Origin: Chthoniobacterales bacterium
GTDB taxonomy: Bacteria; Verrucomicrobiota; Verrucomicrobiia; Chthoniobacterales; JAFAMB01
Reading direction: 5' to 3'
Assembly: GCA_049585495.1 (NCBI GenBank)
Contig: JBAUZZ010000216.1
Coordinates: 3,043-67,042, forward strand
DNA length: 64,000 nucleotides
Shown here: positions 1,955 to 61,666 of the stretch, one piece after another
How the letters are laid out: every line of letters starts with the position of its first letter
How positions within the stretch are numbered: the first letter of the stretch is position 1
Position numbers and translations under genes: made by a program
The notes under the pieces: model-generated
What the model saw: the letters and a program-made list of their open reading frames with translations, nothing else
Told to the model about the DNA's origin: nothing
The model's database searches: none

Positions 1955-2701
1955 ATGACGCGTTGGACTCTAATTTTGGGGTGGCTTGCTTTAGGCGTGT
2001 TGCCGTTGACCGCCGCGGATTTGAACAGCGCTCTCCTCCGGGCTGACAAACTCGAAGATGCAAACAGGTTTAAGGAGGCGTTGGACACATTGAAGGAGGC
2101 TGACCGAACGAGTCCGGAGAACCCTGCTGTCCTCAGGCGGTTGTCACAGGTGTATTCAGACTTGATTGACATTACTTCAAACGCAGGGGCGAAGAAAGAA
2201 TATGCCCAGCTTGCACTGGCCAACGCGAAGCGAGCGGTAGAAAAGGCGCCGAACGACGCCGAAGCCCATCTTGCGCTGTCGATCGCTTATGGAAAAATCA
2301 CCGACTATGTCGATAACAAAACGAAGATCGAGTACTCAAAGTATTTGAAGTCCGAGGCGGAGCAGGCGATCGAGCTCAATCCGAAATTGGATGACCCCTA
2401 CGAGATTCTCGCGCGTTGGAATTTCGAGATGGCGAGTTTGAATCCGATTGAGCGAGGGTTTGCGCAACTCTTTTACGGCCAGTTACCGCCCGCTTCCAGG
2501 GACAAGGCGCTGGAATATTTTCGCAAGGCGATTTCGCTGGCACCGAATCGAATCATCCATCACGCCGAATACGCTCGCGCGCTGGAGCAAATGGGGCGCA
2601 CGAGTGAAGCAAAGGTTGAATGGCGCAAAGTCATGCAGTTGAAACCAACAGACGAGGGCGATCAAAAGTACCAGGCGGAGGCAGCGGCCAATAGTAAATA
2701 G
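1955..2701 (+). CDS. secreted TPR-like helical repeat protein (paralog of 3290..4126)
   Basis: Start taken at MTRWTLILGWLALGVLPLTAADL, a signal-peptide-like N-terminus (codon 62 of ORF 1772..2701). The body is helical, Ala/Leu/Lys-rich repeats. The C-terminal block ARWNFEMASLNP..GFAQ..YG..P.AS is shared with the neighbouring paralog. Confidence 0.6.
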   Translation: MTRWTLILGWLALGVLPLTAADLNSALLRADKLEDANRFKEALDTLKEADRTSPENPAVLRRLSQVYSDLIDITSNAGAKKEYAQLALANAKRAVEKAPNDAEAHLALSIAYGKITDYVDNKTKIEYSKYLKSEAEQAIELNPKLDDPYEILARWNFEMASLNPIERGFAQLFYGQLPPASRDKALEYFRKAISLAPNRIIHHAEYARALEQMGRTSEAKVEWRKVMQLKPTDEGDQKYQAEAAANSK

Positions 2702-2904
2702 CCGATAGCCAATAGCCAATGGCAGATAGCCAATAGATGACGAATGACAAATGACGGATGACAAACCGAACCCGTGGGAGCTTCGACCAAGAGTTCAACC
2801 CGATTGGTGGGGCGATTCGCCTTGGCGCAAAGCTGCACGGCTCGATCTGTTATTTGTCATTTGTCATCGCGCCTTTGCATCTGTCATCTGTCATTTGTCA
2901 CAGC
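2701..2904. repeat. inverted-repeat hairpin with tandem-heptamer arms (AGCCAAT / NNATGAC tracts versus TTGTCAT/CTGTCAT tracts)
   Basis: The left side has AGCCAAT x3 followed by GAATGAC AAATGAC GGATGAC. The right side (2847-2904) has TTGTCAT TTGTCAT ... CTGTCAT CTGTCAT TTGTCAC, the reverse complement of ATGACAA/ATGACAG. The central spacer is about 75 bp. Confidence 0.8.
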
Positions 2905-6152: not shown

Positions 6153-7268
6153 ATGCGTTACCTGATTGCGCCGGACAAGTTCAAAGGCACACTAAGCGCC
6201 CAAGAGGTCGCCGAAACAATCGCGTCTGCAATCAGGGATAGAGATGCGAGGGCAGCCATCGACCTCCTCCCGATCGCCGATGGTGGCGAAGGAACCGCCA
6301 GGTTGTTGGCAGCCCAGTTATCCGCGGAGCGAAACACCGTCGGAACGCTCGATCCATTGGGCCGCCCTATCGATGCAGAGTTTTTCGTTCGAGGGCACGA
6401 GGCGATTCTTGATATGAGCGCTGCCTCGGGATTATGGCGGGTAAACCCGAACGAGCGCGACCCACTCCGATCGAGTACTTACGGAACTGGAATCATCATT
6501 TGGCACCTGGTTGAGAACGGCATCGAACGAATATTCATAGGTCTGGGGGGAAGCGCGACAGTCGATGCCGGATTGGGGATGGGCGCGGCCCTCGGATATC
6601 GATTCTACGGAACTGGAGACTCCAGAATTGAGCCTTTACCTGTCGCTTTCTCCCAGATCCAAAAAGTGGAGCCCCCTCTGATGACGCGGATGCCGGAGGT
6701 CATTGGGCTGGCCGACGTACAGACAGTTTTGACTGGGCCGCGCGGCGCGACTTATACCTTTGGCCCCCAGAAGGGATTGTCTCCAGTCGAGGTCGAAGCG
6801 CTCGACCGCAGCTTGGCCAGCCTTGTTGTTCGACTCGAACAAGACCTTGGGACGAACTTCTCAAACGTCCAGAGCGCCGGTGCGGCGGGTGGGTTCGGGT
6901 ATGGCATCCTGACGTTTTTGAGAGGCAAGCTCGTCTCGGGCTTCGACATGATAGCAGAAAAGCTCGAGCTTCGGAAACGGATCCGGGCGGCAGACGTCGT
7001 CATCACCGGCGAAGGCAAACTCGATCTGCAATCGTTGCAGGGAAAAGGACCATACGGAGTAGCTGTGCTGGCCAGAGAAGCAACGAAGCCAGTTTGGGCG
7101 ATCGCCGGTATGATCGAAAATCGCAATCTTGTTGAGCGGCACTTCGAAAAATTGATTTCGTTAGCCGATGAGCAAGTCACTCTCGAAGAGGCGATGGGAA
7201 ATCCCGTCGAGCTGCTTCGACGTCGAACGATGCAGCTGTGCGGCAACATTAGCGCCGAAGGCGCGTGA
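6153..7268 (+). CDS. glxK: glycerate kinase
   Basis: MRYLIAPDKFKGTLSAQEVAE...LPIADGGEGT...VITGEGKLDLQSLQGKGP is collinear with the GlxK/GarK glycerate kinase family. Confidence 0.88.
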   Translation: MRYLIAPDKFKGTLSAQEVAETIASAIRDRDARAAIDLLPIADGGEGTARLLAAQLSAERNTVGTLDPLGRPIDAEFFVRGHEAILDMSAASGLWRVNPNERDPLRSSTYGTGIIIWHLVENGIERIFIGLGGSATVDAGLGMGAALGYRFYGTGDSRIEPLPVAFSQIQKVEPPLMTRMPEVIGLADVQTVLTGPRGATYTFGPQKGLSPVEVEALDRSLASLVVRLEQDLGTNFSNVQSAGAAGGFGYGILTFLRGKLVSGFDMIAEKLELRKRIRAADVVITGEGKLDLQSLQGKGPYGVAVLAREATKPVWAIAGMIENRNLVERHFEKLISLADEQVTLEEAMGNPVELLRRRTMQLCGNISAEGA

Positions 7269-7502
7269 GAGCTTAGCCCAGGGTGGAGCGTAGCGGAACC
7301 CTGGGTACCTGTAAAAAAACGCGGCGTAGCTCTGAAGGAGCGGAGGAATCTGTCCAACGCGAAGGCCATAAAACTCGCTCGCTATTTCGGTGGGCGGCCG
7401 CAGTCTGCGACTCGGGGTTCGACTCTCCTGCTCCTTCAGAGCGGTGTGCCTATTGATTCAATACCCAGGGTGCCGCTTCGCTCCACCCTCTGGGCTAAGC
7501 TC
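7269..7502. repeat. long imperfect palindrome (MITE/REP-like, about 235 bp)
   Basis: The outer arm 7269-7307 is GAGCTTAGCCCAGGGTGGAGCGTAGCGGAACCCTGGGTA. It pairs with 7462-7502, TACCCAGGGTGCCGCTTCGCTCCACCCTCTGGGCTAAGCTC. An inner pair is GCTCTGAAGGAGCGGA (about 7331) with TCCTGCTCCTTCAGAGC (about 7426). The element starts right after the glxK stop. Confidence 0.8.
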
Positions 7503-7664
7503 TCTTACGCCTTCGGCGTGCAGCTGCTAACTCGACGCGCACGCACGGACCACTACCGGACGACGTCGGGCCGGCGGAGCGGTTTTTGCAGGTTCGGCTG
7601 CTGCCGTCGGTCAGCTGGCCTTTTGCACAAAGTCCCAAAACCCGCTTAACTTGTCGGCCAAGCG

Positions 7665-11326: not shown

Positions 11327-12334
11327 TTACCGGGAAAACTTTCGGATGAAGTCGTACGGATAGGGCAGAGGCACTTCGCTGGCGGAATCCAGCTTCCTGA
11401 TTTGTTTGTCGGACAATGCCCAGCCGACAGCGCCGAGATTACTTTCCAGTTGCTCCATTCTTCGCGCGCCGATAATCGGAGCCGTGACTCCAGGTTGGTG
11501 CAGCAGCCAATTTAGCGCGACTTGGGCCGCCGACCGTTTTGACTCGTCAGCCACTTCGTGCAAGGCGTCCAGAACTCTCCAGGTGTGCTCGTTATTATAA
11601 GCGCTCCACTTCTCACTCCAGTCCTTCTCTTCAGCGATCTGAATCCGACTCCCCTCCGGAGGCGCACTCATGCCGCGCCGGAATTTCCCGGAAAGCCAGC
11701 CACCGCGGAGTGGACTCCACGGGATCACGCCGAGCCCCTCCCGTTGGGCCAGCGGAATCAGTTCCCATTCAGTCGAACGGCATAGGAGATTGTATTGCGG
11801 CTGGAGACAGAAGAAATGCTCCCAGCCCATTTCACGGCTGAGATCAATGGCTCGTTGAAGCTGCCATCCCGTATAATTGCTTGCACCCAGGTATCGGACG
11901 AGACCGCGACGCACAAGATCGTTCAGCGTCGACAGCGTCTCCTCGAGCGGCGTTTGTGAATCCCAACAGTGAACCTGGTAAAGATCCAGATAGTCCGTCT
12001 GTAGTCGCCGCAAACTCGCTTCCACCGCGTTGAGGAGATGCTTCCGGCTGAGACCAAGATCATTCGGGCCATCACCCATCCGAAATCGAGCCTTTGTCGC
12101 AATGATCATGTCATCGCGCCGTTGGCGCTTTAACCAGCGACCGAGGATTTCTTCAGAAACGCCGGTTGAATACACATTCGCGGTGTCAACAAAGTTTCCA
12201 CCCGCTGCGACAAAGCGATCCAGCATCTGATGGCTCTCCTTTTCCGTCGCTTCGTTCTCGCGCCCGAACGTCATTGCACCCAGGCAAAGCTCGCTAACCC
12301 GGAGCCCGGTACGCCCTAAATATCGATAATCCAT
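11327..12334 (-). CDS. aldo/keto reductase
   Basis: [24 protein letters not shown]...DTANVYS.G.SEEILG...LDLYQVH are AKR family motifs. The start is the ATG at 12334 (codon 12 of ORF 11327..12367). Confidence 0.9.
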
Positions 12335-12335
12335 G

Positions 12336-12555
12336 ATTAATGATGCCAGGAATGCCCCGATTGCCAAGGGGGGAACAGTGGTCAGTAGTCAGTGGTCAGT
12401 AGTCAGTGGTCAGTGATTATCAGTGATCAGTAATCAGTGAACGGTGAGACGGTGCGGGGTGCGGTCAGGACACCGGTAACGCTACTGACTACTGACCACT
12501 GACCACTGACCACCGGTCCCCCCTTGGCAATCGGGGCATTCCTGGCATTATTAAT
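12336..12555. repeat. 220-bp hairpin: 38-nt unique outer arms plus CAGTRRT tandem-heptamer inner arms
   Basis: 12336-12373 is ATTAATGATGCCAGGAATGCCCCGATTGCCAAGGGGGG. It is the reverse complement of 12518-12555 at 37 of 38 positions. Inward there are CAGTGGT/CAGTAGT x6 then CAGTGAT/CAGTAAT, opposite ACTACTG/ACCACTG x4-5. Confidence 0.9.
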
Positions 12556-12557
12556 TG

Positions 12558-13724
12558 ATGATTTCGCCGTACACCTTTTCCCCCCGCGGTCGCTTGTTGG
12601 ACTTCATGCGGCAGGCCGGTGATCCCAGACTGATCAACCTGGCGGCTGGCCTTCCGTCTAGCGAGTGCGTACCAAAAAGCGACCTGAAATGGGCCTTCGA
12701 GGCAGCATTAACCGAATCCGCTGACCAGGCACTAGGCTACCACACTCCCGACGGCGATAACTTGCTTAGAGAGCTGTTGGCGAAACGTTTTCACTCTCGA
12801 GGCATCAATGTGACCGCCGACAAAATGGTGATGACTACGGGCTGCACTCAGGCGCTGAATGGTATAATCCGCTTGCTGACAAAACCGGGTGATGTGGTCG
12901 CCTGTGAGGCACCGGCCTACTACGCAACCCTGGAGGTCCTGGGTGATCTCGGTATACGGGTGCTACCCATTCCGGTAAGAGACGCAAACGGGGTCGACCT
13001 CGACCTTGTCTCCAACCTGTTTAATCGGTACCGACCGCGATGCTTTGTGGTGTGTTCGACACTTTCTAACCCCTCCGGCGCAACGATGCCGAATCGGGCT
13101 CGCTTGGAGTTGCTGGATATCTGCTATCGGACAGGAACTCGGATCGTCGAGGACGAGATTTACGGGGAACTCAGTGAGATCGTCGGCTTGCGCTCAATCC
13201 GGTCTTACGATGACGGTTCAACCGTTTCGTACGTGACAAGCTTCTCGAAAACGGTGGCTCCGGGCATACGCGTCGGGGTGTGCATTCCCGGAGGAAACAC
13301 GGATAGCTTCGCCCTGCTAAAATCCCAGCAAGACATGCACTCGGCCACGATTTGCGAAGTTGCCTTTCGAAAGTATCTCGAGCTTGGCGTGCTCGATTCC
13401 CACCTCGATTACCTCAGAAAGTTAAATCGGGAGCGTCGTGAGCACGCCTACCAGGTAATTCGCGAGTCGTTTCCGGCGGACACCAGGGTCTGGCAGCCGC
13501 AGGGGGGATTTATGCTGTGGGTTGAACTAGCGGCCACGGCCGAGATCGAAATGCTTTATCGAGCCGCGCTAGCCGAAAGCGTTGCTTTTTGTCAAGGCAC
13601 GGCGTTTTTCACTGCGGATAACGCAGGGCCGCCCGCGATGCGCTTGAATTGCTCCCGCCCCACGAAGGACCAACTGACCCGGGGCCTGCAAATCCTGGGC
13701 AAGCTGCTGCAGAAGAGTTGGTAG
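12558..13724 (+). CDS. PLP-dependent aminotransferase (class I/II, AspC/LysN-like)
   Basis: LINLAAGLP...YHTPDGDNLLRELLA...TTGCTQAL...NPSGATM...SFSKTVAPGIRVG (PLP-Lys in SFSK) is the aminotransferase fold-type I pattern. ATG at 12558. Confidence 0.85.
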   Translation: MISPYTFSPRGRLLDFMRQAGDPRLINLAAGLPSSECVPKSDLKWAFEAALTESADQALGYHTPDGDNLLRELLAKRFHSRGINVTADKMVMTTGCTQALNGIIRLLTKPGDVVACEAPAYYATLEVLGDLGIRVLPIPVRDANGVDLDLVSNLFNRYRPRCFVVCSTLSNPSGATMPNRARLELLDICYRTGTRIVEDEIYGELSEIVGLRSIRSYDDGSTVSYVTSFSKTVAPGIRVGVCIPGGNTDSFALLKSQQDMHSATICEVAFRKYLELGVLDSHLDYLRKLNRERREHAYQVIRESFPADTRVWQPQGGFMLWVELAATAEIEMLYRAALAESVAFCQGTAFFTADNAGPPAMRLNCSRPTKDQLTRGLQILGKLLQKSW

Positions 13725-21998: not shown

Positions 21999-22241
21999 AC
22001 AGAAGGGCGCAAAAGGGATTTTTACAGAAGCTCACAAAGTTCTCAAAGAGGGTATAGCTCGCGCCCTCAGGTAAGGGCGATGCGGTTCAGCGAGTTGTAG
22101 GGCGGCTGGTTCAGCCGCCGAAAATCACTGCCGCGAACCTCAAGCCAAGTTAAATTTCCCAGGCGCGTGAGCCAGGCGCCCTACAACAGCACCTTTGAGA
22201 TCTTCGAGAGCTTCTGTAAAAACCCCTTTGCGCTCTTCTGT
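21999..22241. repeat. nested composite palindrome (outer about 53-nt inverted arms enclosing a TGTAGGGCGG-type unit)
   Basis: The outer arm 21999-22053 is ACAGAAGGGCGCAAAAGGGATTTTTACAGAAGCTCACAAAGTTCTCAAAGAGGGT. It is inverted relative to 22191-22241. The inner unit at 22096-22185 has the same ends as 800-911. Confidence 0.8.
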
Positions 22242-22266: not shown

Positions 22267-22767
22267 TCAACTCCTCATCGGCTGTGGGCCGAAATCCCGG
22301 ACCGTCGCTTCAAATTCGAGAAGTGCCCGTTTGCGTTCCACCCCTCCTCCGTAACCTACCAACTTGCCATCGGCTCCGATAACCCGATGGCAGGGAACAA
22401 TAATCGCCACTGGGTTGCGACCGTTGGCGAGCCCGACCGCTCGAGGAACGCTTCCGATGCGTTGGGCTTGCTCTTTGTACGAAATCGTCTCCCCGTAGGG
22501 AATCGAGTTCAGCGCTTGCCAGGCCCGGACCTCAAACTCCGTCCCCCTCAAACGCAAGGCGATATCAAACTCAGTTCGCTCTCCTTGAAAGTATGCCTCA
22601 AGCTGCGCGATGACCTCGGGAAAAGGATCTGTGTCCTCGTCCCGGATAGAAACCGGGGGAACCGGCAGAGAGTTACCTTTTACGAAGTGGAGACCCGTTA
22701 GACTCGAGTTCTCCGAGGTTAGCAACAGCATACCAACCGGGCTTTTGTAATAACGGTAGTATTTCAT
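22267..22767 (-). CDS. ogt: methylated-DNA--protein-cysteine methyltransferase
   Basis: IIVPCHRVIGADGKLVGYGGGVERKRALLEFE carries the PCHR active site. The start MKYYRYYKSPVG at 22767 overlaps the upstream stop by 4 nt. Confidence 0.9.
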   Translation of the reverse strand: MKYYRYYKSPVGMLLLTSENSSLTGLHFVKGNSLPVPPVSIRDEDTDPFPEVIAQLEAYFQGERTEFDIALRLRGTEFEVRAWQALNSIPYGETISYKEQAQRIGSVPRAVGLANGRNPVAIIVPCHRVIGADGKLVGYGGGVERKRALLEFEATVRDFGPQPMRS

Positions 22768-24233
22768 TTTTTGCCTTCTAATGATTTCCAGAGATGCATA
22801 GCGGCATACGCTCGCCACGGTCTCCATTTTTCGGCTGCTTTAAGGGCGTCTTTGGATTTCTTAACTTTTAGCGCCTTCAGAATTCCAAGATCGCTGGCCG
22901 GAAAAGCGTCCGGCCAGCCGTAGGCACGCATGGCAAAGTAGTGTGCAGTCCAATCACCCACGCCTGGAAGTTGAGTTAGTTTTTCCATGGCGTCTTCGAT
23001 CGAAACGGCAACATCCAGGACAATCTCCTGCGCAGCGGCTGCTCGCGCGAGAGCGATGATGGACGCGGCACGCGACTTCGTAACCCCCAATGAAATCAGA
23101 TCCGAAATCTCCGCTTTTGCCAACGCGCCCGGCGTTGGAGATAAATGGGTTAATCCGGCCATCGAGGTGGCCAGGGTTTGGCCGAACCGATACGCTAGGC
23201 GAGCAGCTAGAGTAGATGCCGCGCGAACGCTGATCTGTTGGCCAAGAATTGCCCGAACGGCCATCTCGAAACCATCGAAGGCGCCTGGAACGCGGAGGCC
23301 CGGATTCGCGCACGCGACCGATCCAAGATGATCGACAATGCGCTCAGGCACCGCCTCAAGATCGAAGAGACGTCGCACCCGGTTCAGCACCTGCATGATT
23401 ACCGGCAACAAATCTGGCGAGATCTCGACTTGCAGAGCACCTTGAGAAGCCTTGTTCTCTACCATGATCCAACCGGAACGCGGACCGATTTCGACGGTAC
23501 GGTAATACCTGCCGTCAACGATGCGCTCAACCCCCTCAAAGATGCGCGGTGAGAGGAACTCCAGGAGTGACTTCCAATCGAACGGCGTTCGGTAACTGAC
23601 TGTACAAAGGCATCGACTTTGATCCACGGGGACCCGCGTCGCTCTACGCATTTTGGTAGGGGCAAGCCGGTATCGCTCGCGAAAGAGCGCATTAAATCTG
23701 CGCAAGCTCGAAAATCCGCTCGCGTAGGCCACGTCGATCACGGGGAGTCTTGTATCCGTCAAAAGGCGCTTGGCGAGAAGAAGCCGCTGAGTTTGCGCGA
23801 CCTGAATTGGGGTCACGCCAAGCACATTCCGCAGCACCCGGCGAAGATGCCGATCCGTCACCCCGAGCGATCCTGCCAGCTCGTTCACCCCGGTTTCTCC
23901 TAGCGAGTCCTCCTCGAGTTTTCGAAGAGCGGCACGCACCAACCGATGGTTGGCGTCGACCGGCGCGAATCCGGGAGCTAATTCCGGTCGGCAGCGCAAA
24001 CATGGACGAAAGCCTGCGGCTTCTGCTGCGGCGGGATGGATGAAGAACTCGCAATGGTTCAGCTGGGGCCGTTTCGCCGGGCAGATCGGCCGACAATAGA
24101 TTCCAGTCGTTTTGACCGCGACAAAGAAGACGCCATCGAAGCGCTTATCGCGAGTCACGATCGCCTGGTAACAATGCTCCCGATTCAACATCACGGAGCA
24201 ACTTTGCTCCGTCCGAAGGGATTGTCTCGCCAT
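22764..24233 (-). CDS. Ada-type Zn-finger / AraC HTH / AlkA DNA-3-methyladenine glycosylase II fusion protein
   Basis: The N-terminus has FDGVFFVAVKTTGIYCRPICPAK...FRPCLRCRP (Ada Zn-binding). An AraC-type HTH follows (VTDRHLRRVLRNVLGVTPIQ). The C-terminus is HhH-GPD (LTQLPGVGDWTAHYFAMRA.GWPDAFPASD). The start is either ATG 24233 or ATG 24191. Confidence 0.87.
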   Translation of the reverse strand: MARQSLRTEQSCSVMLNREHCYQAIVTRDKRFDGVFFVAVKTTGIYCRPICPAKRPQLNHCEFFIHPAAAEAAGFRPCLRCRPELAPGFAPVDANHRLVRAALRKLEEDSLGETGVNELAGSLGVTDRHLRRVLRNVLGVTPIQVAQTQRLLLAKRLLTDTRLPVIDVAYASGFSSLRRFNALFRERYRLAPTKMRRATRVPVDQSRCLCTVSYRTPFDWKSLLEFLSPRIFEGVERIVDGRYYRTVEIGPRSGWIMVENKASQGALQVEISPDLLPVIMQVLNRVRRLFDLEAVPERIVDHLGSVACANPGLRVPGAFDGFEMAVRAILGQQISVRAASTLAARLAYRFGQTLATSMAGLTHLSPTPGALAKAEISDLISLGVTKSRAASIIALARAAAAQEIVLDVAVSIEDAMEKLTQLPGVGDWTAHYFAMRAYGWPDAFPASDLGILKALKVKKSKDALKAAEKWRPWRAYAAMHLWKSLEGKK

Positions 24234-38855: not shown

Positions 38856-39232
38856 TTTTCGGCATTGGGATTGATGTGGTAGAAAACGCTCGCATTGCGG
38901 ATTCCATCAGGAGACACGGAGATCGTTTCCTCGAGCGGGTTTACCAAACCGCCGAGCTGGAATATTGCCGCTCGATGACAGATCCGATTCCCCATTTCGC
39001 TGCACGATTTGCCGCAAAAGAAGCAGTTTCGAAGGCGTTTGGCACTGGGTTCGCCCAGAACGTGAGTTGGAAAGAAATCGAGGTTAGGCGGAAGGCTAGC
39101 GGAGCGCCCTTCATTGTTCTTCATACGGCAGCTGAGGATCTGGCAAGAAGCTTAGGGATCACAGCTGTTCACATCAGCCTGAGTCACTCCCAGAACTATG
39201 CCGTCGCCAACGCCCTGCTGGTGAAAGAATGA
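38852..39232 (+). CDS. acpS: holo-[acyl-carrier-protein] synthase
   Basis: MIFGIGIDVVENARI...FAAKEAVSKA...SLSHS. The start overlaps the pdxJ stop, matching the conserved pdxJ-acpS pairing. Confidence 0.93.
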   Translation: MIFGIGIDVVENARIADSIRRHGDRFLERVYQTAELEYCRSMTDPIPHFAARFAAKEAVSKAFGTGFAQNVSWKEIEVRRKASGAPFIVLHTAAEDLARSLGITAVHISLSHSQNYAVANALLVKE

Positions 39233-39307
39233 GAGTTCCGCGTTCAGAGTTCCGCGTTCCGCGGCCGTGACAGACGCGGGACGCGGAACCTGAAACTCGG
39301 AACCTGG
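39233..39307. repeat. hairpin with GNGTTCC heptamer arms
   Basis: GAGTTCC GCGTTCA GAGTTCC GCGTTCC GCG - loop - CGCGGGACGCGGAACCTGAAACTCGGAACCTGG. It begins 1 nt after the acpS stop. Confidence 0.75.
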
Positions 39308-39320
39308 AAGCAGAAAAACG

Positions 39321-40040
39321 ATGGAGCGCGATTACAAGGTAACTCTGGAGGTTTTCGAAGGACCGCTCGATCTTCTGCTCTATCTCATCAAGAAGGAAGA
39401 AGTCGATATTTATGATATCTCGATCGAAAAGATCACCGCGCAGTACCTGGAGTACCTGAACAGCTTCCGGATGCTGGATCTGGAGATTGCGGGCGAGTTC
39501 GTCGTCATGGCAGCGAATCTGATCTATATCAAGAGCCGAAGCCTGTTGCCTGTGCATCAGCAACCTCCCGACGAAGACGCGGAGGAAGTGGATCCACGTT
39601 GGGACCTCATCCGACAGTTGATCGAATACAAGAAGTTTAAAGACGCCGCTTTTCACCTCCACCAACGCGAACTCGGGCAGGAAGGAATGTTCCCCCGCCT
39701 GCCGGATAAACCGGCAGGGTCCGATGTCCTTCTCAAATCCGAGGTGGGCATCTTCGATCTGATCAATGCGTTCCAGCGGGTCCTTAAAAAACTTCAAGGT
39801 AAGCGGGAAGATCTGCGCGAAATCTTCGAAGAGAACTACACTGTCTCGGACAAGATCGACTACCTCATGCGCGCGACGCAGTTCGAAAAACCCACCTTCT
39901 TTTCCCAGCTCTTTGCCTTGGCCGCGTCGCGAACCGAAATTGTGGTGACATTCCTGGCTCTCCTCGAGCTCATTCGTCTCAAACAGCTCCGAGTCGCCCA
40001 GAGCGAGCCGTTTGCCGAGATCGAAATCAGGAGACTTTAA
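39321..40040 (+). CDS. scpA: segregation and condensation protein A
   Basis: YKVTLEVFEGPLDLLLYLIKKEEVDIYDISI..IT.QYL is the ScpA N-terminal signature. Confidence 0.92.
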   Translation: MERDYKVTLEVFEGPLDLLLYLIKKEEVDIYDISIEKITAQYLEYLNSFRMLDLEIAGEFVVMAANLIYIKSRSLLPVHQQPPDEDAEEVDPRWDLIRQLIEYKKFKDAAFHLHQRELGQEGMFPRLPDKPAGSDVLLKSEVGIFDLINAFQRVLKKLQGKREDLREIFEENYTVSDKIDYLMRATQFEKPTFFSQLFALAASRTEIVVTFLALLELIRLKQLRVAQSEPFAEIEIRRL

Positions 40041-40084
40041 TGGTAGGATGGACAGTTGGAACGGTCCATCCTACCATTAAAGTC
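40033..40084. repeat. perfect 21-bp stem-loop spanning the scpA stop codon
   Basis: GACTTTAATGGTAGGATGGAC (40033-40053), loop AGTTGGAACG, then GTCCATCCTACCATTAAAGTC (40064-40084). No T-tract follows. Confidence 0.85.
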
Positions 40085-40090
40085 TGAGGC

Positions 40091-40858
40091 ATGGTTACGC
40101 TGAAAGCGGTTATTGAAGCTCTGCTGTTCAGCTCGCACAAAGCTCTTACGCCAAAAGAGATTGTGAGCGTGTTGAAAGCAGCCTCGGAAGCTGCCGACAA
40201 AAGTACCAGAAACGAAGCAAGCGTTCCGGCCAGGGAAAACGAGGTCGCCGAGGTGTTGCAGGCACTCGCCCGCGAATATACGGAAATGGGCCGCTCGTTT
40301 CAGTTGGTTGAACACGCGTCCGGATGGCAACTGACCAGCCGGCCGGATTATCAAGCCTGGGTGCGCCAGCTGTTCCCTGAACTGCGCCCTGCCCGACTCA
40401 GCACCCCCGCGCTCGAAACGCTCGCGATCATCGCTTACCGGCAACCGATAACGAAAGCCGATATCGAGGCGATTCGCGGCGTCACCGTGGATGGAATTCT
40501 CCAGAAACTCCTGGACGCGGGCCTCACCAAAATCGGCGGACGAGCGGAGATTCCTGGGAGACCTTTGTTGTACGAAACTACACAACATTTCCTGGAACAT
40601 TTTGGTCTGAGAACGCTCGATGAGCTGCCGAACGCTTCGGAACTCCGCGATCTTTCGTTGCCCGGAACGAAGGAGACTGGTTTACCCGCTGGCCCGGAGC
40701 ATCAGGCAATTCAGGAGACGCTGGACTTACCGGAACAGAAAGCGACTGACGAAGATATCGTTCGAAGCACAATCACGCACCCGCAAGACCCCAAGCTGAA
40801 GGAGACACAAGGTGGAACCATCGAAACCGTCGCTAGAAGAGATCCGGAACCAGATTGA
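40091..40858 (+). CDS. scpB: SMC-Scp complex subunit ScpB
   Basis: LKAVIEALLFSS.KALTPKEI... , ALETLAIIAYRQPITKADIEAIRGV and GRPLLYETT..FLEHFGL are ScpB motifs. Confidence 0.92.
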   Translation: MVTLKAVIEALLFSSHKALTPKEIVSVLKAASEAADKSTRNEASVPARENEVAEVLQALAREYTEMGRSFQLVEHASGWQLTSRPDYQAWVRQLFPELRPARLSTPALETLAIIAYRQPITKADIEAIRGVTVDGILQKLLDAGLTKIGGRAEIPGRPLLYETTQHFLEHFGLRTLDELPNASELRDLSLPGTKETGLPAGPEHQAIQETLDLPEQKATDEDIVRSTITHPQDPKLKETQGGTIETVARRDPEPD

Positions 40859-41900
40859 TGGCATCGACTCTGAATTGCTATGGCTGCTCAATCAACGCGC
40901 TGAACTGGTGCATGAGATTGGCGTCTTAAAGAAAGAGGCCGGCTTATCGATTTATGCACCTGAACGCGAGGAGACGCTGCTCCAGTCTCTGGTACAAAGG
41001 AGTCAGGGCCGATTGCCACCCGTCTCGATCCGGGCGATCTACCGGGAGATCATGTCAGCCTCGCTTGCCCTCGAAAAGGATTTGACGATCTCCTACCTCG
41101 GCCCAGAGGCAACCTGGACACATCAAGCCGCGCGGGCAAAATTCGGAGCATCCGTCCGCTACGATCCCCAGTCGAATATCGGAGACGTCTTCGACCAGGT
41201 GACCCGCCGCCGCGCAGACTACGGCGTCGTTCCGATCGAAAACTCGGTGGAGGGCGCCGTGAATCACACGCTGGACGTTTTCATGGATTCAGAACTCAAG
41301 ATCTGTGCCCAGATCCTGTTGCGGATCGAAAACAATTTTCTTGCAGCAGGTGCTCGCGAGGAAATCAAAAAAATCTATTCGCATCCGCAGGTCTTCGGAC
41401 AATGCCGGAAGTGGCTCCAAAACTACGCGCGCGGCCTCGAGTTGATCGAGGTGTCCAGCACCACTCGGGCGGCCGAGATCGCTGCGCACGAACCTGGCGC
41501 AGCCGCCCTCGCCGGCGCGATGGCAGCGGAAATTTACAGGCTTCAGGTTTTGGAGCGGTCGATTCAAGACAGCCCGAACAACACGACTCGATTCCTGGTG
41601 ATTTCGCACACAACCTGCCCACCGACAGGTAACGATAAAACCTCATTGATGTTTTGTGTTCACGATCGCGTCGGCGCGCTGTACTCGGCTCTGGAGCCAT
41701 TCAATCGGCTCAAGTTGAGCATGAGCAAAATTGAAAGCCGGCCATCGAAGCGAAAAAACTGGGAGTACTTTTTCTTCGTCGACATCGAGGGTCACTGCGA
41801 CGACAAACCCGTCAAGGATGCGCTGCATGAGCTGGAGAAGCACTGCACTTTTGTCAAGGTCCTGGGGAGTTATCCGAAAACGGAAGCGGTGGGGGGATAG
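40812..41900 (+). CDS. pheA: bifunctional chorismate mutase / prephenate dehydratase (P-protein)
   Basis: The CM domain is LEEIRNQIDGIDSELLWLLNQRA. The PDT domain is ISYLGPEATWTHQAA...VPIENSVEG. The ACT domain is TSLMFCVHDRVGALYSALEPF...ESRP. The GTG start at 40812 overlaps the scpB 3' end. Confidence 0.92.
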   Translation: MEPSKPSLEEIRNQIDGIDSELLWLLNQRAELVHEIGVLKKEAGLSIYAPEREETLLQSLVQRSQGRLPPVSIRAIYREIMSASLALEKDLTISYLGPEATWTHQAARAKFGASVRYDPQSNIGDVFDQVTRRRADYGVVPIENSVEGAVNHTLDVFMDSELKICAQILLRIENNFLAAGAREEIKKIYSHPQVFGQCRKWLQNYARGLELIEVSSTTRAAEIAAHEPGAAALAGAMAAEIYRLQVLERSIQDSPNNTTRFLVISHTTCPPTGNDKTSLMFCVHDRVGALYSALEPFNRLKLSMSKIESRPSKRKNWEYFFFVDIEGHCDDKPVKDALHELEKHCTFVKVLGSYPKTEAVGG

Positions 41901-42565
41901 GGCTCGTTCGTTTCTCGTGTCTCGTGTCTCGTGTCTCGTGTCTCGCCTCGTTTGCGCGCTCTGGAACTTTGGGAATGAAATAGTACTTGCAACGCCAAGC
42001 CGATTTATATAACATCTTTGCCAGATGTTCTATGAATAAGATTCAGTCTTTTGAAGACTTCGATGCATTCAAAATAGCGAGAGAGTTTTGCCGGGCCGTA
42101 GGGAGAATAGTCCGAAGCCAGACCTTCAGTGATGACCGCAGTCTACGTTGGCAGATTGAGAAATCACTCGTCTCCATCCTCTCTAACTTTGCAGAGGGAT
42201 TTGAGCGCGATGGGCGTCAGGAATTCATTCAGTTCCTGACAATCGCTAAGGGATCTGCAGGTGAAGCTCGTGCACAGTTGATCTACGCTTATGACCAAGG
42301 TCTGATCGACGAGGCGACGTTCCAATCGCTGCACGATTTAGGCGTTAGAGTTTCGGCGATCTTCGGCGGTTTATTGAAACATCTCTCCCAATCCGAATAC
42401 TCCGGAATCAAATTTAGGAAATTCAACGCATCGCCGAATCAGAGAACGGTTCCTGGAAGGCAAGCAAGTCCGGCTTCCGGAAATCAAACAAAGATCTCAG
42501 GAGATAGCGAAAAACGAGAGACGAGAAACCAGAGACGAGAAACGAGAGACGAATAACGAATGAGC
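41901..42565. other. IVS-like cassette: four-helix-bundle gene bracketed by tandem-heptamer inverted arms
   Basis: The left arm 41901-41956 is GGCTCGTTCGTTTC(TCGTGTC)x4TCGCCTCGTTTGCG. The right arm 42507-42565 is GCGAAAAACGAGAGACGAGAAACCAGAGACGAGAAACGAGAGACGAATAACGAATGAGC. The arms are reverse-complementary with about one mismatch per heptamer, and the outer termini are GCTC(G/A)TTCGTT. Confidence 0.75.
42032..42556 (+). CDS. four-helix-bundle protein (23S rRNA intervening-sequence protein family, PF05635/TIGR02436-like)
   Basis: MNKIQSFEDFDAFKIAREFCRAVGRIV...QIEKSLVSILSNFAEGFERDGRQEFIQFLTIAKGSAGEARAQLIYAYDQGLI is the family's characteristic pattern. The C-terminal tail of about 50 aa runs into the right repeat arm (..EKRETRNQRRETRDE) and is probably not native. 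Confidence 0.8.
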   Translation: MNKIQSFEDFDAFKIAREFCRAVGRIVRSQTFSDDRSLRWQIEKSLVSILSNFAEGFERDGRQEFIQFLTIAKGSAGEARAQLIYAYDQGLIDEATFQSLHDLGVRVSAIFGGLLKHLSQSEYSGIKFRKFNASPNQRTVPGRQASPASGNQTKISGDSEKRETRNQRRETRDE

Positions 42566-61449: not shown

Positions 61450-61666
61450 GGTGACCAGTAGCCAGGGGGGTCAGTAGTCAGTGGTCAGTAGCCAGTAGCC
61501 AGTAATCTGTAATCTATGGTCGGTGGCCCGTCCGCGATTTTCTTTGCAGCTCGGCGGGCTGAGAGCGGTGCAGCAGAATCTGTCTAGGCATGACGTTCCC
61601 GTGGAACCAGCTACAGACCACAGCTTACTGACTACTGATTACTGATTTACTGACCACCCGATCACC
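61450..61666. repeat. inverted-repeat hairpin with CAGTRRY tandem-heptamer arms (same heptamer as 12336 element)
   Basis: The left arm is GGTGACCAGTAGCCAGGGGGGTCAGTAGTCAGTGGTCAGTAGCCAGTAGCCAGTAATCTGTAATC. The right arm is ..CTGACTACTGATTACTGATTTACTGACCACCCGATCACC. The outer ends are GGTGA(C/T)C / G(A/G)TCACC. The spacer is about 80 bp. Confidence 0.8.

Follow-up and report, generated by a model that had tools for sequence, protein, structure and literature searches.

The 223-bp gap between a divergent aldo/keto reductase (AKR) gene and a class I/II aminotransferase (AT) gene, located in a 64,000-nt stretch of DNA from a soil Chthoniobacterales bacterium (NCBI GenBank assembly GCA_049585495.1, contig JBAUZZ010000216.1), is formed by an inverted repeat whose outer ends reach almost to both start codons. 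The reading favoured here, with a probability of roughly 0.55, is that the outer arms of this heptamer-based hairpin carry two extended –10 promoters, nearly the same in sequence and directed outward, from which each mRNA would start at its ATG, and that these promoters are symmetric as a result of recombination from arm to arm. The anatomy of the gap, its pattern of conservation, the inversion of its interior, the covariation of its arms and their uniqueness in the sequence searched are direct observations. The stretch analysed is referred to as the window at its whole length, and coordinates refer to it unless a relative is named.

By means of a repeat finder, the arms were delimited at 12336-12407 and 12484-12555 (72 nt, 94% complementary, with 76 nt separating them), which bears out a previous sequence-only reading that had described the gap as an inverted repeat with arms ending 1-2 nt from the ATGs. 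The outer 31-mer CCCCCCTTGGCAATCGGGGCATTCCTGGCAT had exactly two occurrences in the 64-kb window, one on each arm, and 0 of 100 shuffles presented a match. Read toward the genes, the outer 38-mers showed a single difference, CATCAT on the AKR side and CATTAT on the AT side, being identical at 37 of 38 positions; one nucleotide (C) lies between the 38-mer and the ATG of AKR, and two (TG) between it and that of AT. Folding of the gap as single-stranded DNA yielded –94.9 kcal/mol (z = –19.7).

Predicted promoters on the arms

A consensus scan of positions 12200-12700 revealed two promoter-like sites, one per arm, where shuffled sequences would give an expected 0.2, and none in the hairpin interior. 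Each of these sites presented 9/12 matches, the plus-strand one being TTGGCA-16-TGg-CATTAT and the minus-strand one TTGGCA-16-TGg-CATCAT. On the AKR side, all on the minus strand, the –35 hexamer TTGGCA was placed at 12362..12367, separated by the 16-nt spacer from the extended –10 (TGg + CATCAT) recovered by the scan at 12340..12348, which was followed by a 5-nt discriminator, TAATC toward the gene, at 12335..12339. On the AT side, all on the plus strand, the scan placed TTGGCA at 12524..12529, the scan together with arm comparison placed the extended –10 (TGg + CATTAT) at 12543..12551, and the 6-nt discriminator TAATTG occupies 12552..12557. The –10 to ATG distance is, consequently, 5 nt for AKR and 6 nt for AT.

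The signature of leaderless transcription in bacteria is a Pribnow box located 6-8 nt from the start codon (PMC6028130). Since the –10 elements end 5-6 nt before the ATGs, the predicted +1 position is the A of each ATG, at 12334 for AKR (ATG at 12332..12334, minus strand) and at 12558 for AT (ATG at 12558..12560, plus strand), and both genes would give rise to leaderless mRNAs, or to mRNAs whose leader does not exceed 2 nt. It is from these features that we infer that the arms are active as promoters and that transcription begins at the ATGs. Each outer 38-mer would act as an outward sigma-70-type extended –10 promoter, and two near-identical promoters would supply the same basal signal to both genes. 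Such a leaderless promoter would also be portable, with no further element needed up to the ATG. The sequence-only reading had already pointed to –35/–10-like boxes spaced as TTGGCA-19-TATTAAT; the TTGGCA was kept, and the remainder was replaced by the 16-nt spacing and the extended –10 described above. After this re-parse, its suggestion of leaderless transcripts starting at the ATGs became the best-supported reading, with which the conservation among relatives agrees, though it is still a prediction.

At the scale of the window, promoter-like sites with leaderless geometry were found at 4 of 55 first starts and at 1 of about 270 internal candidate starts, the four first starts being those of AKR, of AT, of the gene for RNase HII (17790) and of the ScpB gene (40091). 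No Shine-Dalgarno (SD) 4-mer was present upstream of the AKR and AT ATGs, as had been stated earlier; this lack, however, is not special to them, as SD-like 4-mers occurred at only about 10 of the 55 first starts and were not commoner there than at internal candidate starts. The organism appears to be SD-scarce, like some other Verrucomicrobia (PMC10783764), and because SD motifs are rare at gene starts throughout the window, their absence is weak as evidence for leaderless mRNAs.

Both start codons are firm: the Pfam matches of AKR and AT begin close to the N-termini, and in relatives the opening codons vary synonymously while the encoded residues are kept. In the AKR gene (11327-12334, minus strand), the PF00248 match begins at residue 15, and the N-terminus is conserved at the protein level with synonymous changes among relatives. 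The AT gene (12558-13724, plus strand) presents a PF00155 match, and its homologues, of 385-390 aa, begin with MISPY.F at the same position. In every clade member, both AKR and AT start with ATG.

Conservation of the arms in relatives

Exact-protein look-ups retrieved the same locus from several metagenome assemblies. The relatives compared comprised, by AT identity, L007 (98%), L009 (88%) and L008 (84%) and, by AKR identity, L036 (100%), L037 (93%) and L038 (82%), besides a group of about 70% identity (L010, L012, L013 and L030-L035), to which all six loci found by a metagenome protein scan belonged. The short-read contigs L004 and L005 terminate within the element. The AKR/AT pair was retained in divergent orientation in L007, L008, L009, L010 and L038. 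Mirror-image arms abutting both ATGs were present in all members of the close clade.

The comparison of 11 arms (window, L002/3, L007, L008, L009, L036 and L037), aligned on the –10 element, revealed that the –35 TTGGCA was conserved in 10 of them, and that the TG one base upstream of the –10, as well as A2 and T6 of the –10 itself, were kept in all 11. The spacer measured 16 nt in every arm, with variable sequence, and the –10-to-ATG distance was invariably 5 nt on the AKR side (6/6 arms) and 6 nt in every AT-side arm. Free variation was concentrated in five mid-spacer positions and in the discriminator sequence, which on the AKR side was AAGCC in L037 and TAGTC in L008. Between the window and L008, the arms differed by 13-21%, the third codon positions of the flanking genes by 32-46%, and the hairpin interior was scarcely alignable. 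Because the arms change less than third codon positions, the 38-mers are, by this measure, under purifying selection. Moreover, the retention of two hexamers, a TG and fixed distances around a free spacer argues for a promoter rather than for a leader, three equal sites or a neutral repeat.

In contrast to these constraints, the near-perfect agreement between the two arms of one genome is not shared by the clade. Of the 38 positions, the two arms of the window disagreed at one, those of L007 at 4, those of L009 at 8 and those of L008 at 12; the 37/38 match stated in the sequence-only reading is confirmed for the window and is lineage-specific. The outgroups with 72-82% identity carry heptamer arrays between the same divergent genes, and their promoter-proximal sequences are not mirrored; the arrays are complementary in L038 (GGAGTCA / TGACTCC) and non-complementary in L010. 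Because the outgroups keep the arrays without mirrored promoter-proximal sequence, the heptamer hairpin is old, and the palindrome spread outward over the promoters in the clade of the window. In the group of about 70% identity, AT is preceded by the block CCTTGAAGATT...GGTAGAAC...TG-ATG, positioned like CCTTGGCA...TG-ATG of the window, the AT-side TTGGCA falling in the same place as the TTGAAG block of these relatives.

The best surviving alternative, although an unlikely one, is that the 38-mers are shared 5′ leaders or initiation regions, AU-rich and unstructured, and that transcription starts in the heptamer tracts or in the centre. Non-SD leaders must be common in an SD-poor organism (PMC10783764, on Verrucomicrobia), the final 11 nt before the ATG are AT-rich, and some of the relatives with about 70% identity present a GGAG-like purine-rich block 9-12 nt before the ATG, all of which would suit a leader. 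However, the interior from which such a transcript would have to start holds no promoter-like site, is unconserved in sequence, is invertible, and in L036 is interrupted by an insertion sequence (IS) 22 nt beyond the arm, and the conservation of the arms themselves is promoter-like.

Two other functional assignments were tried. A sigma-54 reading of the TGGCA repeats was rejected: GGCA recurs every 9 nt, so that GG and GC lie 9 or 18 nt apart and not 12, as in TGGCACG-N4-TTGC, and the sole 12-nt register needs the middle unit, which is unconserved in relatives. Three equivalent 9-mer regulator sites are not favoured, as the outer two units are kept and the middle one is free, with the variants CGGGG, CCTGG, CCCGG, CACCG, CGAGC and CGGTC among the arms.

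Several points weigh against the promoter interpretation itself. The –10 hexamers CATTAT and CATCAT reach only 4/6, the sequence upstream of the –35 is C-rich with no UP element, and the scan used a sigma-70-type consensus. The 9-nt units CTTGGCAAT, CGGGGCATT and CCTGGCATT can also be read as a tandem repeat, in which case the promoter likeness is partly built in. The comparison set is small, comprising about four independent lineages, with metagenome assemblies throughout. Finally, the heptamer part has kept its capacity to form a hairpin throughout the clade and also in L038, and a structural or recombinational role of the core is possible.

Search for further copies of the arm

No further copy of the 38-mer or of the arm was found in the 64-kb window, nor in the fetched loci outside the orthologous site. 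A scan of 185,579 species genomes (GTDB) for the 38-mer yielded 16 single chance hits in unrelated taxa, and a metagenome pattern scan gave 0 matches; both collections apparently do not contain this organism, as neither of its two copies was retrieved and the JGI contig that yielded L009 was not found. The possibility, raised by the sequence-only reading itself, that the 38-mer is a common dispersed repeat unrelated to gene starts found no support in the sequence searched.

These searches also bear on the proposal that the whole inverted repeat is a miniature inverted-repeat transposable element (MITE) of the Correia type, with outward promoters, that was inserted between the genes. The long terminal inverted repeats (72-nt arms, 94% complementary) would fit such an element, as would terminal repeats with promoter-like sites, which are a general feature of Correia elements, and the dispersal of related heptamer hairpins in the window. 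The palindromic ATTAAT at each end could, in addition, conceal a target duplication, since ends that are themselves palindromic make such a duplication indistinguishable from the repeat. Nevertheless, no second copy of the arm was found in the window, the fetched loci, the species genomes or the metagenome scan, and no empty site was seen, the 6/6 complete clade loci being occupied. An element occupies this position in every clade member, even where protein identity falls to 84%, and its arms diverged in step with the genes; this vertical inheritance argues against a recent insertion. Furthermore, the AT-side arm sits where the outgroups have the conserved upstream block CCTTG...TG-ATG, and the removal of the element would leave divergent ATGs about 9 bp apart. 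Taken together, a transposable origin of the repeat is improbable.

Pairing, inversion and proposed recombination between the arms

Two positions of the 38-mer (4 and 13) differ between genomes and agree between the arms of one genome. In a formal count, four pairs had changed on both sides, and the covariation of 0.112, compared with 0.079, was reached by 12 of 500 shuffles. Within the heptamers, strain variants consisted of G/A flips in the units, including a G:C to A:T double change. The arm mismatches compatible with G.U pairing, sought as a sign of selection at the RNA level, were mixed between strands. No Rfam match attained the gathering score; at the e-value level, only look-alikes far below threshold were listed, namely the plant MIR1437/mir-1537 and Ocean-VII, the long-hairpin precursors of plant miRNAs scoring 74.6 bits against a threshold of 168 bits.

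In L036, whose AKR protein is 100% identical to that of the window, an IS110-family element lies within the heptamer tract, 22 nt beyond an AKR arm that is intact. This insertion (L036 42-1690; JGI 3300085324, Ga0679438_0117092) encodes a transposase of 455 aa (PF01548 + PF02371) and has a non-coding end of about 280 nt, and its second junction is beyond the contig end. Because complementarity has been lost with little compensation in relatives, and because the arm of the IS110-interrupted L036 is intact, the promoter arms probably do not need the hairpin.

These observations also make it improbable that the palindrome works as a structure, either as a cruciform that negative supercoiling from the divergent transcription would extrude, burying the promoters, or as an RNA hairpin that occludes the starts, with coupling of the two genes and feedback on their expression in either case. 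Such a role would account for the very strong folding, for the hairpin potential kept across the clade and for some of the double-sided changes. On the other hand, a non-complementary centre of 76 nt is known to disfavour cruciform extrusion, the promoter arms of relatives accumulate 4, 8 and 12 mismatches in 38 positions, and the AKR arm is kept in the interrupted variant; the modest covariation, for its part, is explained equally well by recombination. Likewise, with outward promoters neither mRNA would include the opposite arm. The earlier idea that each mRNA 5′ end might pair with the other arm and hide the start codon is not sustained either, given that no inner promoter-like site was found, that arm complementarity was lost in relatives and that the L036 arm is intact.

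The favoured explanation of the symmetry, arm-to-arm recombination, draws on the orientation of the interior. The interior of L007 corresponds to the reverse complement of that of the window (score 74 versus 11), with L007 2812-2965 matching window 12374-12517 in inverted orientation, and its flanking coding DNA is 97-98% identical to that of the window. The L007 contig came from sample ERZ25039506, and the L003 and L006 contigs, from the same sample, have the orientation of the window. An inverted interior is also probable in L009 (23 versus 12). Between the window and L007, the AKR arm changed by 16% and third codon positions by about 5%, a rate above the neutral one that overwriting of tracts would account for. 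From this set of facts we infer conversion between arms as the mechanism of symmetry.

The core of the element (about 12368-12523) is an ORF-less hairpin of inverted tandem heptamers round a short asymmetric centre. Under the proposed mechanism, the mirror symmetry of the gap would be a by-product of arm recombination or gene conversion, not a requirement of hairpin function. Recombination between the arms would also flip the interior, and conversion would spread outward as far as the coding sequence tolerates; the repeat may stop 1-2 nt from the ATGs because conversion into coding sequence is selected against. No recombinase gene was detected within about 9 kb by a Pfam scan of the ORFs from about 3.3 to 22.8 kb, which belonged to housekeeping families only, and therefore the arms probably recombine by ordinary homologous recombination or by template switching.

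That the interior constitutes a programmed invertible switch moving an upstream regulatory site between the promoters is very improbable: although its centre is asymmetric, its 17-mer recurs in a 72% relative and it lies inverted between strains with nearly identical flanking coding DNA (probably also in L009), the flipped segment has no promoter, promoter-like sites being confined to the arms, the surroundings are housekeeping genes, with no gene for a site-specific recombinase up to about 9 kb away, 72-nt arms suffice for ordinary homologous recombination, and the two orientations come from different strain contigs rather than from one clone.

Heptamer tracts and a possible PF05635 connection

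Inward of the promoter arms, the element is composed of repeat sequences, and the CAGTGGT/CAGTAGT tracts and the G-rich centre described in the sequence-only reading were both recovered. A G-run at 12368..12373, which is a C-run on the opposite arm, separates the promoter arm from the left heptamer tract (12376..12441), where CAGTGGT/CAGTAGT units decay to CAGTGAT/CAGTAAT. The right tract (12484..12513), formed by ACTGACT/ACTGACC units, is complementary to the left one, both tracts having been delimited by TRF and the repeat finder. Between them, the asymmetric G-rich centre (12442..12483) contains GTCAGGACACCGGTAAC at 12464-12480 and lines up co-linearly with that of L007 once the latter is reverse-complemented. 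None of these elements was assigned a strand. Similar G-runs flank heptamer arrays near 41890 and 61465.

The 17-mer GTCAGGACAYCGGTAAC of the hairpin centre (12464-12480) occurs twice in L010 (1184-1200 and 1209-1225), beside a heptamer array. In L010, whose AT is 72% identical, the intergenic region is otherwise unalignable with that of the window, and the 17-mer GTCAGGACAYCGGTAAC could be a binding site. The AKR/AT gap of L010 measures 810 nt and contains a pair of short ORFs that overlap (59 and 66 aa; L010 1300-1676), bracketed by the non-complementary heptamer arrays GTTCGGC x7 and CACCTCT x5; no Pfam match was obtained for these small ORFs.

About five loci of the window (2687-2900, 12376-12513, 39232-39300, 41908-42559 and 61456-61654) hold inverted pairs of period-7 arrays, the unit differing by locus and the arms matching within a locus. 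Three of them are intergenic and ORF-less, with the units GCCAATA/ATGACGA versus TGTCATT at 2687-2900, GTTCCGC versus GCGGAAC at 39232-39300, and CAGTAGC/CAGTGGT versus TACTGAC at 61456-61654, the last having its unit and the preceding G-run in common with the AKR/AT element. The pair 41908/42508 encloses a gene of the family PF05635, "23S rRNA intervening sequence protein" (42032-42556, plus strand). This gene, encoding a four-helix-bundle protein, lies between pheA and an AsnC-type gene, and its brackets are TCGTGTC x5 and GAGACGA-type x7. The cassette was present in all strains compared, and only the heptamer copy number varied. Plasmid PF05635 genes of Riemerella, two Nostoc strains and Pseudanabaena (L039-L042) were also bracketed by tandem arrays of 6-8-nt units, inverted in three of the four and direct in the other. 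No paper describing heptamer brackets around non-rRNA PF05635 genes was found in the literature.

In Coxiella burnetii, the intervening sequence (IVS) of the 23S rRNA has a complementary stem, tandem heptamers variable among strains and an S23p ORF, and is excised by RNase III (PMC4990558). Heptamer repeats of the TAACTGA type have also been described in intergenic regions of Beggiatoaceae, Cyanobacteria and Bacteroidetes (PMC4679880). On this basis, it is conceivable, and put forward only tentatively, that heptamer-array hairpins are ORF-less relatives of IVS/S23p (PF05635) elements, that is, selfish or structural intergenic palindromes distributed across phyla, which would recombine readily enough to invert their own interior, to draw in IS110-type insertions and to duplicate an adjacent leaderless promoter on the opposite arm, giving rise to new bidirectional promoters in mirror image. 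The proposed class would span Verrucomicrobiota, Cyanobacteriota, Bacteroidota and the rRNA IVS of Coxiella. The AKR/AT element resembles, in its sequence features, an ORF-less IVS-type hairpin outside rRNA, and it is not classed as an IVS because it has no ORF and is not in rRNA. This possible cross-phylum link between heptamer hairpins and PF05635 is a more novel thread than the pair of promoters.

Genomic context and other features of the window

The two genes flanking the gap are housekeeping genes, and the neighbourhood corresponds to core metabolism, including glycerate kinase, DinB, PGI, RpiA, tricorn protease, a tRNA and RNase HII. The G+C content of the window is about 55%, and the named AKR homologues belong to metagenome-assembled genomes of Verrucomicrobia/Verrucomicrobiota.

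Other inverted sequences were observed in the window. The scpB-like gene, with its ATG at 40091, is preceded at a distance of 5 nt by a near-perfect palindrome (40032-40085; 26 nt, 96%, loop of 2 nt). This palindrome, whose right arm contains the promoter-like site TTGGAA-16-TAAAGT in leaderless geometry, offers a second instance of a start codon abutted by a hairpin arm. The DNA between dinB and the glycerate kinase gene holds two Acido-Lenti-1 RNA motifs in inverted orientation, at 7251-7305 (minus strand) and 7464-7520 (plus strand), some 160 nt from each other; one scores 43.3 bits (above the gathering score) and the other 24.6 bits (below it), and they coincide with a 29-nt inverted repeat (7253-7281 / 7490-7518). 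Finally, a 37-nt inverted repeat (22012-22048 / 22193-22229; 89%, with 144 nt between its arms) is placed just downstream of the 3′ end of an ogt-like gene (22267-22827, minus strand).

Significance and comparison with known systems

If the favoured reading is true, a whole expression signal, comprising promoter, start site and start codon, is contained in about 40 nt and can be duplicated in mirror image by palindrome recombination, which would offer bacteria a simple route to co-regulated divergent genes. It would also indicate leaderless initiation in Verrucomicrobiota, make the 38-mer a candidate minimal promoter part for the lineage, and connect the long-puzzling tandem heptamers and the 23S-rRNA IVS/S23p cassettes with a broader set of hairpins in intergenic DNA. 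As a genetic device, a compact two-way promoter on a repeat hairpin, made symmetric by arm recombination, is neat and fairly ordinary; its novelty is that of a variant of bidirectional promoters, leaderless promoters and palindrome homogenisation, and is of moderate interest.

To our knowledge, there are no transcription-start maps for the soil-abundant Verrucomicrobiota, and no transcription-start survey for Verrucomicrobiota was met in the literature, in which no search was aimed at one. The leaderless promoters of Actinobacteria and Deinococcus-Thermus (GeneMarkS-2 "group C") have in common with the predicted ones a –10 element placed 5-8 nt before the ATG and the lack of a 5′ UTR and SD (PMC6028130), and promoters of leaderless mRNAs are among the subjects of a report on Deinococcus deserti (PMC4007540). 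In contrast to these, the present case concerns Verrucomicrobiota, and its two predicted promoters are mirrored on one palindrome. Similarly, bidirectional promoter regions place back-to-back promoters in one short intergenic region between divergent genes; such promoters are usually unrelated in sequence, whereas here they are reverse-complement copies (37/38) with a repeat hairpin between them.

Correia repeat-enclosed elements of Neisseria are short and palindromic, occur in hundreds of copies with TA duplication, and bear in their terminal inverted repeats promoter elements that can drive neighbouring genes. Compared with them, the arms described here are restricted to a single locus, vertically inherited and without sequence similarity to Correia elements. 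The fimS and hin switches also present a segment in both orientations flanked by inverted repeats; in the AKR/AT element, however, there is no recombinase nearby and no promoter inside the invertible segment.

With the IVS/S23p cassettes, the element shares the complementary stem of tandem heptamers and the strain-variable units. It differs from them in that its ORFs have at most 28 aa, with no PF05635 ORF, its centre measures 42-76 nt, and it lies between two protein-coding genes instead of in 23S rRNA, so that it may never be transcribed. The TAACTGA repeats share the period of 7, an ACTGA-type core and an intergenic location, often near start codons in SD-poor contexts (PMC4679880); the TAACTGA arrays are for the most part direct repeats placed immediately next to the start codon, whereas here the arrays form inverted pairs that the 38-mer separates from the ATG. 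In the context of symmetry, the inverted repeats of plastids and the palindromes of sex chromosomes undergo arm-to-arm gene conversion and flip-flop inversion of the spacer. The AKR/AT element has in common with these large palindromes the concerted evolution of its arms and an interior found in both orientations, and is distinguished from them by arms of 72 nt and by a converted segment that includes the predicted promoters.

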